A stretch of DNA of 64,000 bases from positions 5,180 through 69,179 of the forward strand of contig CAYNIY010000003.1 in NCBI GenBank assembly GCA_964397525.1. The letters are read 5' to 3'. Source of the stretch: an uncultured Eubacteriales bacterium. Lineage in GTDB: Bacteria; Bacillota; Desulfotomaculia; Desulfotomaculales; Pelotomaculaceae. Shown piece by piece: positions 8,261 through 19,682 of the stretch. The notes beneath the pieces are model-generated. The model saw only the letters and a program-made list of their open reading frames with translations. It had not been told where the DNA came from and made no database searches. How positions within the stretch are numbered: position 1 is the stretch's first letter; each line of letters begins with the position of its first letter. The translations under genes and the position numbers were made by a program.

Positions 8261-8542
8261 AGTTGCTTGATAGCAAACATATTCTAACAGATAGGAAATA
8301 ATGAGTCAATATAAAGCCAGACAGGTTTTGGCTGCTGTTTAATTATGATTCTGCATCTTGAATAAATTGATATTCATATAATTTACTGTTATAAACCACA
8401 TGGTTAATAAAAATATTTAATAACTAAAACTTGTTTTAATCATAAATATATCTTGTATATATATAGCAAAATAGCTAAAATAGGTTTAACTTTACAGTCA
8501 ACCTGATTCATTCAACATGCGTTTTTGAGAGGAGGAGTATAC

Positions 8543-8764
8543 ATGGAGGGAAAAGTCGAGTCTGTGCTGATGAGGGTCAGACCTTTGCTTCAAAGAGACG
8601 GAGGAGACGTCGAGCTGGTGGAGGTTACTGCCGACGGTGTGGTTAAAGTCCGCCTGAAAGGAGCCTGCAGCGGGTGCCCTGGTGCCAAGATAACTTTAAA
8701 GCAGGGTATTGAGAGAATGCTCAAACAGGAGATTCCGGAAATCAAAGAAGTAATTTCTGTCTAG
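8543..8764 (+). CDS. NifU/NfuA-domain Fe-S scaffold protein, Cys form (CSGC)
   Basis: [17 protein letters not shown]...[11 protein letters not shown]; AGGAGG RBS before ATG 8543. Confidence 0.93.
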   Translation: MEGKVESVLMRVRPLLQRDGGDVELVEVTADGVVKVRLKGACSGCPGAKITLKQGIERMLKQEIPEIKEVISV

Positions 8765-9018
8765 TTAAGAATATGCTGATAATTTATAGACCCTTCATTT
8801 CTCACAGGCAAGAGAGGCGGAGGGATTTTTTTACGCTGTCTTTTAGGTTTAATTAACACTATACAATAAAATAATTTTATATTTTTACATTTAAATATAA
8901 GATAATATTGTAATACCCATCTATAACAGGTAAAATAGTTTTAAACTGCGGTGTTACAAAGACATATTCTGTTGGATATATGCAGTGTATATTATAAGTT
9001 GAAGGGAGGTTAATACCA

Positions 9019-9240
9019 GTGAAAGAGAAAGTATTGGAAGCGCTGAATAAAGTCCGGCCTTTTCTTCAAAGAGATGGTGGAGACGTTGAACTTATTGATG
9101 TCACCGAAAACGGGGTGGTAAAAGTTCGTCTGAAAGGTGCCTGCAGTGGGTGACCTGGTGCCAAAATAACCCTCAAGCAGGGTATTGAGCGGTTGCTCAA
9201 GCAGGAAATACCGGAAATTAAAGAAGTGATTTCTGTATAA
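9019..9240 (+). CDS. NifU-domain protein, predicted selenoprotein (CSGU, TGA at 9151-9153); absent from the ORF track
   Basis: GGGAGG RBS + GTG; 73 codons, 59/73 identical to the upstream paralog; TGA aligns exactly to the second Cys of CxxC; frame conserved to TAA 9240. Confidence 0.88.
9165..9186 (+). promoter_or_regulatory. candidate bacterial SECIS hairpin
   Basis: AATA-A-CCCT-CAAGC-AGGG-TATT starting 12 nt after the TGA; the stem is weakened in the Cys paralog. Confidence 0.5.
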
Positions 9241-9246
9241 CTAATG

Positions 9247-9270
9247 AACCCCCTGAAAACAGGGGGTTTT
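9247..9270. terminator. intrinsic terminator between convergent genes
   Basis: AACCCCCTG-AAAA-CAGGGGGTT followed by T run. Confidence 0.75.
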
Positions 9271-9292: not shown

Positions 9293-10126
9293 TTAGCGAG
9301 GTGTTTCCAACTGGTAGATGTCTGTCCGCCTGTGTTTTAACAGGGGCAGGGCTTCCCTTATCTTATCTATTTGCTGGAGGTCTATATCTCCGTACAGAAT
9401 CACTTCTTTCTCGTCAGCCCGGGCAATTATTTGGCCCCAGGGATCCACGATAACGGAGTTTCCATAACTAACATAAGATGCTTCGGTGTTCCTGGCCGAT
9501 GCAGCGCCGACCATAAAAACCTGGTTGTCTATAGCCCTGGTCCTCAGCAGCAGTTCCCAGTGGGCCGGCCCGGTATTCATATTGAAGGCGGCGGGCAGCA
9601 CAATTATCTCTGCCCCCATCAGGGCCATTAAAAGGGTTAATTCAGGAAACCGTATGTCATAGCATATCGCCAGACCAAGTGTGCATATTTCTGTTTTGAC
9701 GACGGTGATACTATTCCCGGCTCCGAGTGTCCTGGATTCGTGAAAGGAAAGGCTGTCCGGAAAGTCTACATCAAAAAGATGAATTTTCCGGTGTTTTGCC
9801 AGCAGTTCACCTCTGGGGCCAAAAATGAAGCTCGAGTTATAGATATAGTTTTCTTCCCGTTCGGGAATGGAGCCGCCGACGAGAAAAACTTCCTCTTCTG
9901 CTGCTGTCTCCGACAGCATTTTTAGCGTGCTGCCGTCAGGGAAACTTTCTGCATATTTTGGAAAAAGACTGCTGTTGTAAGGACAATTGAACATTTCCGG
10001 CAGTACTACAAGCCTGCAGCCTTCGGCTGCTGCCTTTTTAATCATTGAACGGGCCTTGGAAATATTCAAATCCTTGTTGTTAATAACCAGCATCTGGCAA
10101 ATGCCAATTTTAAATTTGTTTCTCAT
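9293..10126 (-). CDS. carbon-nitrogen hydrolase (nitrilase superfamily, omega-amidase/Nit2-like)
   Basis: Glu-Lys-Cys triad motifs LPEMF, HRKIHLFD, ICYDIRFPE; GPAHWELLLRTRAIDNQ. Confidence 0.92.
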   Translation of the reverse strand: MRNKFKIGICQMLVINNKDLNISKARSMIKKAAAEGCRLVVLPEMFNCPYNSSLFPKYAESFPDGSTLKMLSETAAEEEVFLVGGSIPEREENYIYNSSFIFGPRGELLAKHRKIHLFDVDFPDSLSFHESRTLGAGNSITVVKTEICTLGLAICYDIRFPELTLLMALMGAEIIVLPAAFNMNTGPAHWELLLRTRAIDNQVFMVGAASARNTEASYVSYGNSVIVDPWGQIIARADEKEVILYGDIDLQQIDKIREALPLLKHRRTDIYQLETPR

Positions 10127-10151: not shown

Positions 10152-12125
10152 TTATGGTTTCCCGGTTATCAGTATCTCAACAACTGTTGGATCAGCTAAT
10201 GTTGAGGTATCCCCAAGATGTTCAAGATCCCCGGATGCTATCTTCCTTAAAATCCTCCTGAGGATTTTACCGCTCCTGGTTTTAGGCAGGGAGTGTGTAA
10301 AGTGTATGACATCCGGGGAAGCAATCGGGCCTATTTCTTTGCGTACAATAGCAACGAGTTCTTTTCTTAAATCCTCCGTCGCGGTAATGCCGTCTAAGAG
10401 CGTTATATAGGCATAAATGCCTTCACCCTTGATATCGTGCGGGTAGCCTACTACAGCTGCCTCAGCCACTTTGGGGTGAGCTACCAGGGAGCTTTCTACT
10501 TCTGCTGTTCCAAGGCGGTGCCCGGATATATTGATCACATCATCCACGCGGCCCATCAGCCAGTAAAACCCGTCCTCATCTTTGCGGGCGCCGTCAGCTG
10601 TGAAATAGCAGCCCGGGTACTGGGTGAAATAAGTGTTTTTAAACTTATCGGGTTCGCCATAGACACCGCGCATGATACCGGGCCATGGTTTTGTAATGAC
10701 CAGGTACCCTCCTTCATTAACCCCAGCCTCTGTGCCGTCCTGGCGAATAACCTTTGGATTTACGCCGAAAAATGGCAGAGTGGCTGAGCCTGGTTTAAGT
10801 GGGACACCACCGGGCAGTGGTGAAATTAAAATTCCGCCTGTTTCAGTCTGCCACCATGTATCGACAACAGGGCATTTTTCTTTTCCGATTATCTTGTAGT
10901 ACCACATCCAGGCTTCGGGATTAATCGGTTCACCAACCGATCCAAGCAGGCGCAGGCTGCTGAGGTTTCTTCCTTGCGGCCACCTGTCGCCATCCCTCAT
11001 CATGGACCTTATAGCTGTAGGTGCGGTATAGAAGATATTTACACCGTATCTTTCTACAATCTCCCAAAACCTGTCCGGATCTGGATAGTTCGGTGTTCCC
11101 TCAAACATCAGGGTTGTAGCGCCGGCTGAGAGGGGACCATAAATGACGTAACTGTGTCCGGTAACCCAGCCGATATCAGCTGTGCACCAGAATATATCTT
11201 CATCCCGGTAATCAAAGATATACTTAAAAGTTGTTGTAGTGTAAACCATGTAACCGCCGGTGGTGTGCAGCACACCCTTGGGCTTTCCGGTGCTGCCGCT
11301 TGTATATAGGATAAACAGCGGGTCTTCCGCATCCATTTCCTCAGGCTCGCAGTCAGCCTGGGCATATCTCATGAGATCATGATACCAGTAGTCGCGGCCT
11401 TCCGTCATTTCACATTCTTTATCAACCCTTTTAACCACGACGCAGTTTTTAATTCTTGGGCAGTCTAACAATGCATCATCAGCGTTTCCTTTGATAGCAA
11501 GGTGTTTGCCGGACCTGTACCCAAAATTACAGGTAATCAGTGTTTCCGCTCCTGCGTCGAGGATCCTGTCACGCAGGGCTTCCGAGCTGTATCCGCCAAA
11601 AACAACGCTGTGGATAGCCCCGATCCTAGTACAGGCCAGCAAGGTTATGGCCAGCTCGGGGATCATCGGCAGGTAAACGGTAACCCGATCCCCTTTCTTT
11701 ATACCCAAATTTTTTAAGACATTTGCAAATCTGCAGACTTCCCGGTGCAGCTGGAGATAAGTATATGTTTTGCTTTCTTCCAGTGGCTCACCCTGCCAGA
11801 TCAGGGCTGCCTTGTTTCGGCGCCAGCTCTTTAGGTGACGATCCAGGCAGTTATAGGAGGCGTTGAGTTTCGCGCCGTGAAAATATCTTATATAGAAATC
11901 ATCAGTGAAATTATATTCTTCAACCGAATCCCATTTTTTATACCAGTCTATTTGTTCTGCCATTTCAGCCCAGAACTCGTCTGGTTTCTCAATTGATTTG
12001 CGCCACATTTCGTTGCGCTGTTCAAGGCTGCTGACGCGCGCCTTTTCCGCAAACTCAGGAGCTGGATAAAAAACCCTGTTTTCGATCAGCGAAGAATCCA
12101 CGCTTCCAGTTTTTTCCCCTGTCAT
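10152..12125 (-). CDS. acs: acetyl-CoA synthetase (AMP-forming)
   Basis: [52 protein letters not shown] with the acetylatable Lys; ATG at 12125 after GGAGGGG. Confidence 0.96.
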
Positions 12126-12451
12126 AGCTACCCCTCCACCATTATTTGATGAAACAAACCAACTTGAAAAAAGCAATAAACAACAATGCATTTATAATAT
12201 ATCATATTTTTTAAATAATTAAGAATTTTGCTTTAAATTACCACTACAGTCAGTTAAAAAGCATAAAAAGAAGGTTTAATGGTTTCAGTTTTCTGATAAG
12301 AAAGGTTGAATAATATGATGGCGGATGTATATATATCTATGGTTAAAACCTTTATAAGGGAATTATAAGCCAGCTGCGGGCAGTTTACTTTGAGAGATGT
12401 AAATAAATATTAAATAAAAGTTAAATTTTCCTTAAAGAAATCGGGGCAATA

Positions 12452-19433: not shown

Positions 19434-19522
19434 CTGTTTTTATTGCAGGAATACGTTATTTGTTGTAGAATGAATTTACATAAAATAAGGAAAATTGTAC
19501 CTTTAAAATATAATATTTCTGT

Positions 19523-19682
19523 CGGAAAGGGCAAACTTCCCGAAAGGGAGGGGCGCAAAACTTCGGGCCTAAAGCCGAATAATTATACAGCGGACAGGTT
19601 TGGGATTATATTTGTGTTAATTTATTATATCCAAAAACTGTTTTGCTTTTGATTTTTTAGCCAGGGCGGCTGAGTTGCCGGG
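19523..19682 (+). promoter_or_regulatory. cyclic di-GMP-I (GEMM) riboswitch with extended P3
   Basis: GGGCAAAC-TTCCC GAAA GGGAG-GGGCGCAAAAC...GGCCTAAA...GCGGCTGAGTTGCCG; GAAA tetraloop and CTAAA receptor; G at the G20-equivalent position. Confidence 0.85.

Follow-up and report, generated by a model that had tools for sequence, protein, structure and literature searches.

Nfu proteins supply iron-sulfur (Fe-S) clusters to many enzymes, and in the characterised members the C-x-x-C pairs of two subunits together hold a transferable cluster. We know of no solved or characterised Nfu in which this dyad reads C-x-x-U, with selenocysteine (Sec, U) in place of the second cysteine. Bacterial selenocysteine insertion sequence (SECIS) elements, as in fdhF of Escherichia coli and fdhA of Moorella thermoacetica, are hairpins within the coding sequence that follow the UGA and present a GG(U)N apical loop about 18–20 nucleotides (nt) after it. 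Pairs of Cys and Sec isoenzymes under selenium control occur among the hydrogenases of Methanococcus (Fru/Frc and Vhu/Vhc) and of Desulfovibrio. Among Fe-S carriers, Sec likewise replaces a conserved Cys in the HesB-like selenoprotein (TIGR01911), an IscA/A-type carrier that is common in anaerobes, with 86 organisms listed (Peng et al. 2016, PMC5029168), and that exchanges Sec and Cys dynamically (Zhang et al. 2006); it is unrelated to Nfu in fold and family, and its motif is UxGP rather than CxxU (PMC13188914). Here we analyse a stretch of 64,000 nt (the window) from an uncultured Eubacteriales bacterium of the Pelotomaculaceae, class Desulfotomaculia (assembly GCA_964397525.1, contig CAYNIY010000003.1, positions 5,180 to 69,179), in which two Nfu genes lie in tandem. 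We consider it highly likely that they specify two separately transcribed Nfu carriers, of which the downstream one carries SECIS-directed Sec at codon 45, forming C-x-x-U.

The locus consists of two co-oriented open reading frames (ORFs) of 73 codons on the forward strand, with 254 nt between them. The upstream gene (8543–8764, +; 73 amino acids (aa)) starts with ATG and encodes an ordinary member of the Cys-type Nfu group with a CSGC motif (...KGACSGCPGAK...), the second Cys being TGC at 8675–8677. The downstream gene (9019–9240, +) starts with GTG and reads ...KGACSG-TGA-PGAK..., so that the TGA at 9151–9153, the proposed Sec codon for residue 45 of a CSGU motif, occupies the column in which every Cys homolog has the second Cys of CxxC. 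The ORF listing halts this gene at 44 aa, at that TGA. The two products share 59 of 73 residues, plus the Cys/TGA column, and differ at 14; beyond the TGA, 27 of 28 residues are identical and the stop falls at the same codon. An initial annotation of the window had pointed out the two paralogs and their coordinates, the TGA at the second Cys of CSGC, the near-identical tail and the ORF missed by the listing, and each of these was recovered here. TGA also terminates 11 of the 44 long ORFs in the window, and the organism therefore uses the standard genetic code. Its closest protein matches put it with Pelotomaculum-like Desulfotomaculia of digesters and sludge.

Both products are full-length members of the family. 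PF01106 (gathering cut-off 27 bits) matches the Cys copy at 1.1e-28 (99.6 bits) and the Sec copy, read through the TGA, at 1.7e-29 (102.2 bits), in both cases from profile position 1 or 2 to position 67. A scan of both proteins against the NCBIfam profiles returned NifU C-terminal-domain and NfuA models only, with no match to the HesB-like TIGR01911 for either. C42 and C45 do not vary among 31 aligned homologs, and the Sec copy strictly lacks the second Cys. Sequence matches in the PDB include Arabidopsis CnfU/NFU2 (2Z51, 5e-22), SE0630 of S. epidermidis (1XHJ) and human NFU1 (2M5O), as well as rice and mouse NifU-like domains. An AlphaFold2 (AF2) model of Sec-Nfu (pLDDT, the predicted local confidence, 84.7) has the order helix, two strands, CxxU loop, long helix, strand, and a Foldseek search with this model retrieved 2Z51 (template-modelling (TM) score 0.87) and 2M5O (0.85) with probability 1.00. 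Compared with the Cys-type proteins 1XHJ, 2Z51 and 2M5O, the predicted structure has the same full-length domain and alpha-beta fold (TM 0.69–0.87), with the dyad at the same place in the loop before helix 2; what sets the downstream copy apart is UGA, and hence predicted Sec, for the second Cys. In the AF2 model, a 44-residue product would miss helix 2 and strand 3 of the fold.

Homologs of the downstream gene were sought in six frames, reading through stops, and all fetched loci were searched with tblastn for the position of the stop. Of the 61 nearest genomes, 43 have a homolog that contains exactly one in-frame TGA, and TGA-form Nfu genes occur in at least 74 of 162 species genomes of the class. 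Among 400 genomes sampled from the phylum, one more family has TGA forms and all other lineages have Cys forms. Across 125 fetched homologous genes, TGA stands at query residue 45 in 36 and at no other position, the remaining 89 having TGC or TGT; all 36 run in frame to the same stop, each with a strong ribosome-binding site (RBS). Such recurrence at one exact codon is far beyond chance. Ten relatives, one of them with a complete, single-contig genome (G021), have no PF01106 gene other than the TGA gene and would be left with no Nfu at all if it were dead.

The TGA is also unchanged in contigs from three independent metagenome studies. The other differences nearby in those contigs are synonymous, plus a G>A change at 9019 in runs X2 and X5 that turns the GTG start into ATG and therefore supports a start at this position. 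The start codon itself thus varies by strain, being GTG in the window and ATG in the X2 and X5 assemblies. Within the window pair, the 28 codons after the TGA have accumulated 11 synonymous and two non-synonymous changes; a dN/dS of 0.028 with pS at 0.58 indicates that the duplication is old and that the tail has been under strong purifying selection. Among 28 distinct Sec orthologs, pN/pS is 0.22 in codons 62–73 and 0.17 in codons 2–44, before the TGA. We conclude that the TGA copy is a genuine gene and that its TGA is read through, very probably as selenocysteine.

The genome has its own machinery for doing so. A tRNA-Sec (selC) scores 68.8 bits against a cut-off of 47, selA (624 bits) and selB (394 bits) lie side by side on contig 22, and selD is present on contig C1 (55580–56506, −; locus L012, outside the window); all four score above their curated cut-offs. 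The selD gene has an in-frame TGA near its N-terminus (...SSAG-TGA-AAKIGP...), which indicates that selD itself encodes a selenoprotein, a selenophosphate synthetase of the Sec type. That codon is followed by two adjacent hairpins, whose GGUGC loop begins 33 nt beyond the UGA (position 36, counting from its U). A further gene, fdnG (contig C54, TGA at about 775, +, outside the window), encodes the Tat-signal alpha subunit of formate dehydrogenase-N (TIGR01553, 1061 bits) with its TGA at the canonical HCARL-U-HAPTV site, followed by a single SECIS hairpin whose GGUCU loop lies at the classical spacing, 19 nt beyond the UGA (position 22, counting from its U). The gene was located by a genome-wide search for TGA codons with a GG-loop hairpin behind them; the search was noisy, and only Sec-Nfu and fdnG were credible among its 66 matches. 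Across the class, selA was found in 156 of 162 genomes, and none of the six without it has a TGA-form Nfu; selA is so nearly universal that this co-occurrence, although it holds, hardly discriminates. The initial annotation had asked whether sel genes are present in the genome and whether orthologs keep the TGA, and had named missing machinery or a TGA confined to this one assembly as outcomes that would speak against it. All of the sel genes are there, and the TGA is kept in orthologs throughout the set of at least 74 genomes given above.

A candidate recoding signal lies directly behind the TGA, in codons 51–61 of Sec-Nfu, where two adjacent hairpins are predicted by folding. The first (H1, 9169–9183, +; ACCCU-CAAGC-AGGGU) has its loop 20 nt after the UGA, and the second (H2, 9185–9200, +; UUGAGC-GGUU-GCUCAA) presents a GGNN apical loop at 37 nt. 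The H2 stem is invariant in all 33 distinct Sec forms and the loop is GGNN in every one of them; in five lineages it reads GGUC, which is the SECIS loop of E. coli and Moorella. H1 has 86.7% of its cells paired and partly keeps its pairing by shifting register. The constraint becomes visible when codon use is contrasted between these 33 Sec genes and 17 closely related Cys genes. Five codons are the same in 33/33 Sec genes and less uniform among the Cys genes: Thr51 ACC (9/17; Fisher p 4.5e-5), Ile56 ATT (9/14; p 1.3e-3), Glu57 GAG (15/17), Arg58 CGG (4/16; p 2e-8) and Leu60 CTC (8/17; p 1e-5). Synonymous diversity in codons 51–61 is correspondingly low in the Sec genes (pS 0.205 against 0.808 in the Cys genes), and the two sets are alike elsewhere. 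An RNA constraint on this segment, limited to the TGA forms, would fit a SECIS element, in which H2 is likely the SelB-binding loop and H1 may serve as a spacer or auxiliary hairpin. The arrangement resembles the fdhF and fdhA elements in placing a hairpin with a GG(U)N loop inside the coding sequence after the UGA, and departs from them in the distance of that loop (37 rather than about 18–20 nt) and in the extra conserved hairpin between. The two-hairpin layout is shared with selD of the same genome, whereas fdnG has the classical spacing. An additional outer helix, CCNGG/CCGG, was considered and is not claimed, since its pairing reaches only 88% and one of its pairs is often broken.

Sequence signals around the pair suggest that each copy is a separate transcription unit. 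Upstream of the Cys copy there is a promoter-like site at 8453–8481 (+; −35 TTGTAT, 17 nt, −10 TAAAAT) in a block that is kept upstream of Cys copies in seven related genomes; this putative promoter, with its weak −35, was not listed by a consensus promoter scan. The RBS of this copy, as read from the sequence, is AGGAGGAG at 8530–8537 (+), a strong site 5 nt before the ATG at 8543, and the gene is followed by a terminator-like hairpin (8791–8832, +; CCCTTC...GGAGGG and seven T), found by folding and kept in the alignment of relatives. For the Sec copy, the scan did find a promoter-like site at 8908–8936 (+; TTGTAA, 17 nt, TAAAAT), both hexamers of which are kept upstream of Sec copies in nine genomes. 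A putative 5' leader of about 75 nt (8943–9018, +), likewise kept across the nine genomes, would lead to a strong RBS, GGGAGG, at 9004–9009, and an intrinsic terminator found by scan follows the gene (9246–9269, +; −21.1 kcal/mol, z = −5.6, with none of 200 shuffles as stable). The conserved promoters of both genes are of the sigma-70 type, according to the upstream alignments of seven to nine genomes, and an RBS and 3' hairpin belonging to each copy, which the initial annotation had described, are seen at both genes. With a promoter and a terminator of its own, each gene could therefore be regulated independently. Just before the RBS of the Sec copy, the leader has a small hairpin (8976–8992) whose arms are ATATA/TATAT here and TTATGA/TCATAA in relatives; its fold energy is not exceptional, and it might serve transcript stability or the control of translation.

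Metatranscriptome contigs from four studies span 8958–9252 of the Sec gene, including the TGA. They cover 9037–9200 (X16, identical to the window), 8980–9252 (X23), 8958–9171 (X24) and 9015–9245 (X25), are 90–100% identical to the window, and none has another letter at 9151–9153. They begin at 8958 or later, downstream of the promoter of the Sec gene, and those that reach furthest end at 9245–9252, which fits a monocistronic Sec-Nfu transcript. In the labelled metatranscriptomes, contigs turned up for the Sec gene but not for the Cys gene, a hint at most, as missing contigs do not show missing RNA.

How the two forms are distributed bears on what each may do. The family to which the window belongs is represented by 36 genomes, 31 of which have the Sec form; about 13 have the Sec form only and three the Cys form only, and no Nfu form was detected in two of the 36. 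The Sec form thus looks like the constant and often sole Nfu of this family, and the Cys paralog like an optional extra. The order found here, Cys then Sec on one strand at a distance of 200–700 nt, is shared by 22 genomes from several families; a pair of this kind is also present in a cultured strain, Desulforamulus putei DSM 12395 (L050), and in the metagenome-assembled genome behind L051. Pairs of another kind, with two tandem TGA-form Nfu genes, were seen in three genomes (G055, locus L042; G112; G115).

Sec and Cys forms are intermixed in the protein tree, with at least seven state changes on well-supported branches; the tree, built from 72 columns, is weakly resolved with many open forks and does not date the duplication. 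Some of the Cys genes appear to have been Sec genes until recently. The Cys gene of G010 (L038; TGT) still has both hairpins intact, and those of G003 and G009 (L015/L016; TGC) have kept H1, have a decaying H2 and start with the GTG typical of Sec forms, whereas the long-standing Cys copies of the window's own genus have no trace of either hairpin. These hairpin relics confirm recent reversions from Sec to Cys and could help to date how the element is lost, and the sequences indicate that the two states have been interconverted repeatedly.

On this basis we propose that the upstream gene would yield a single-domain Nfu Fe-S carrier with the usual C-x-x-C, and that the UGA at codon 45 of the downstream gene would be decoded as Sec by the genome's own SelA, SelB, tRNA-Sec and SelD. 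Decoding would be directed by the RNA of codons 51–61, with its two adjacent hairpins and the GGNN loop of the second, to give a 73-residue Nfu with C-x-x-U. By analogy with the family, two subunits would bridge a [4Fe-4S] or [2Fe-2S] cluster through their CxxC or CxxU motifs; a selenolate would then replace one thiolate ligand per subunit and could alter the ease with which the cluster is taken up and handed over. The Cys paralog would most likely serve as a backup that needs no selenium, or as a carrier for other clients.

Several observations weigh against this proposal, most of them concerning the RNA element. There is no covariation in either hairpin, as the six pairs of H2 never vary and H1 has no double changes in a fixed register; the stability of the hairpins is unexceptional (z = −0.2 to −1.1 against shuffles); RNAalifold favours another outer pairing; and no Rfam family matches, at gathering thresholds or at E-values up to 10, where only chance matches appeared. 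A GGNN loop 37 nt from the UGA is at the far end of the bacterial SECIS range of about 16–37 nt, and the loop of fdnG in this same genome is at 19 nt. As the fold energies do not differ significantly from those of shuffles, the case for a SECIS element rests on the synonymous-site contrast. The RNA evidence consists of assembled metatranscriptome contigs, and such libraries can contain DNA, so that the contigs across the TGA are supportive and not decisive. Sec in the protein is predicted from sequence, and what we suggest about cluster binding, dimerisation and the effect of selenium on them is extrapolated from Cys homologs only.

These reservations leave room for other readings of the TGA itself. 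Gene callers and public records stop at this codon, with products of 44–47 aa (PTH_2132, SHF07090.1), as they would for a pseudogene, an assembly error or a genuine gene of 44 residues. The data already contradict this, and we give it a negligible chance: at least 74 genomes have the TGA at this one codon, beyond which frame, length and stop are all kept, dN/dS or pN/pS downstream is 0.03–0.22, independent assemblies and RNA contigs have the identical TGA, and a 44-residue product would be without helix 2 and strand 3. The view of the initial annotation that a pseudogene was unlikely has thus been borne out by the spread of the TGA through the class, by purifying selection behind it and by its persistence in independent assemblies. 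The ordinary stability of the hairpins and their atypical spacing would be less surprising if UGA were read by a near-cognate or suppressor tRNA inserting Trp, Cys or Arg. We regard this as very improbable, since all homologs have a metal or redox Cys at this position, selA is present in all carriers checked, and the constraint is specific to UGA forms and includes a GGU-type loop like those that follow the selD and fdnG UGAs here; the TGT and TGC revertants, moreover, retain decaying relics of the element. Selenocysteine therefore remains our preferred decoding of codon 45.

The role of the product and of the pairing is less certain. Instead of a carrier, the CxxU protein may be a small selenol/thiol oxidoreductase, acting for example on persulfides or disulfides of Fe-S assembly partners, which is the main rival on function. 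Human NFU reportedly has thioredoxin-like activity, and the CxxU loop precedes a long helix in the AF2 model. Redox motifs of the UxxC/CxxU type are moreover found in most uncharacterised selenoproteins (PMC13188914). We nevertheless think such a role unlikely, as the protein has a full, high-scoring Nfu domain whose CxxC is a cluster ligand pair in characterised members, as the carrier role would be vacant in the ten genomes with no other Nfu, and as the HesB-like selenoprotein demonstrates that Fe-S carriers can use Sec. A separate suggestion, raised in the initial annotation and compatible with a SECIS-decoded Nfu carrier, is that the pair forms a selenium-responsive switch in which the Sec gene is expressed under selenium supply and the Cys gene is induced by selenium shortage. 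The recurrence of the Cys-then-Sec order in 22 genomes of several families, D. putei among them, the conserved promoter and terminator of each gene, and the Sec-only contigs of the labelled metatranscriptomes are in its favour. The hydrogenase pairs of Methanococcus and Desulfovibrio likewise place Sec and Cys forms of a protein in the same genome, each in a transcription unit of its own; the present pair consists of tandem 73-aa carriers, it is only a candidate for selenium regulation, and many relatives have no Cys copy. The family also includes genomes with the Sec form alone (about 13) or the Cys form alone (three), no shared operator was seen beyond the promoter elements in the upstream alignments, and the absence of Cys contigs does not amount to an absence of RNA. 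The two copies, saturated at synonymous sites and differing at 14 residues, may simply have different clients. On balance, we entertain a switch as a tentative possibility. A bolder version, in which Sec45 is a direct selenolate ligand of the inter-subunit cluster, giving faster or more oxidation-tolerant uptake and release, and the Cys-Sec tandem is a selenium switch, possibly with mixed Cys/Sec dimers, seems to us rather doubtful as a whole.

A Sec-containing Nfu appears to be uncatalogued, although its recoding mechanism is canonical and Nfu is a well-known protein family. The initial annotation had stated that Sec-containing NifU-like proteins are known in some anaerobes, a statement that found no support in the selenoprotein lists or in the public records, which end at the TGA. 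The full inventory of families by Peng et al. 2016 (PMC5029168, Table S3) has no entry for NifU, Nfu or PF01106, and the three are likewise missing from Zhang et al. 2006, the 2022 review PMC9312934, Haft's 2022 preprint and Table 1 of the May 2026 review PMC13188914, which gives all known and predicted prokaryotic selenoprotein families with domain identifiers. A full-text literature search for NifU with selenoprotein terms returned nothing relevant. The Sec-Nfu of Pelotomaculum thermopropionicum SI is stored as a 47-aa 'hypothetical protein PTH_2132' (BAF60313.1) and that of D. putei DSM 12395 as a 45-aa 'NifU-like domain-containing protein' (SHF07090.1), both ending at the TGA, and the window's Sec-Nfu is likewise in public records as a 44-aa fragment. 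An exact look-up of the full-length proteins, with C for U, found none, records that bear U (RefSeq, for example) being outside its reach. With Sec-Nfu cut to 44–47 residues in the records, the ten related genomes in which it is the sole Nfu gene appear to have no intact Nfu, which distorts metabolic reconstructions.

If Sec is a cluster ligand in Nfu, this would be only the second such Fe-S carrier family known, after the HesB-like proteins, and it would tie selenium nutrition to the maturation of Fe-S enzymes in the syntrophic propionate oxidisers and sulfate reducers of digesters, sediments and aquifers. Should the switch and the ligand role both be real, Fe-S supply in syntrophic and sulfate-reducing Desulfotomaculia would be coupled to selenium availability. 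The adjacent Cys and Sec copies also offer a natural control, with which the SECIS nucleotides of this lineage could be defined.

The neighbouring genes have no evident functional link to the Nfu pair. Downstream in the window lie a C-N hydrolase gene (9293–10126, −) and an acetyl-CoA synthetase gene (10152–12191, −), and one or both are found just downstream of Nfu in several genera, in varying orientation (L050, L062, L064, L045, L068). The upstream neighbours in the window are a TetR gene and a tRNA-Leu(CAA); in other genera this place is taken by an extracytoplasmic function (ECF) sigma/anti-sigma pair. Farther along, at 19520–19682 (+), the window contains a c-di-GMP-I riboswitch (Rfam, 60.6 bits) that is unrelated to the Nfu pair.

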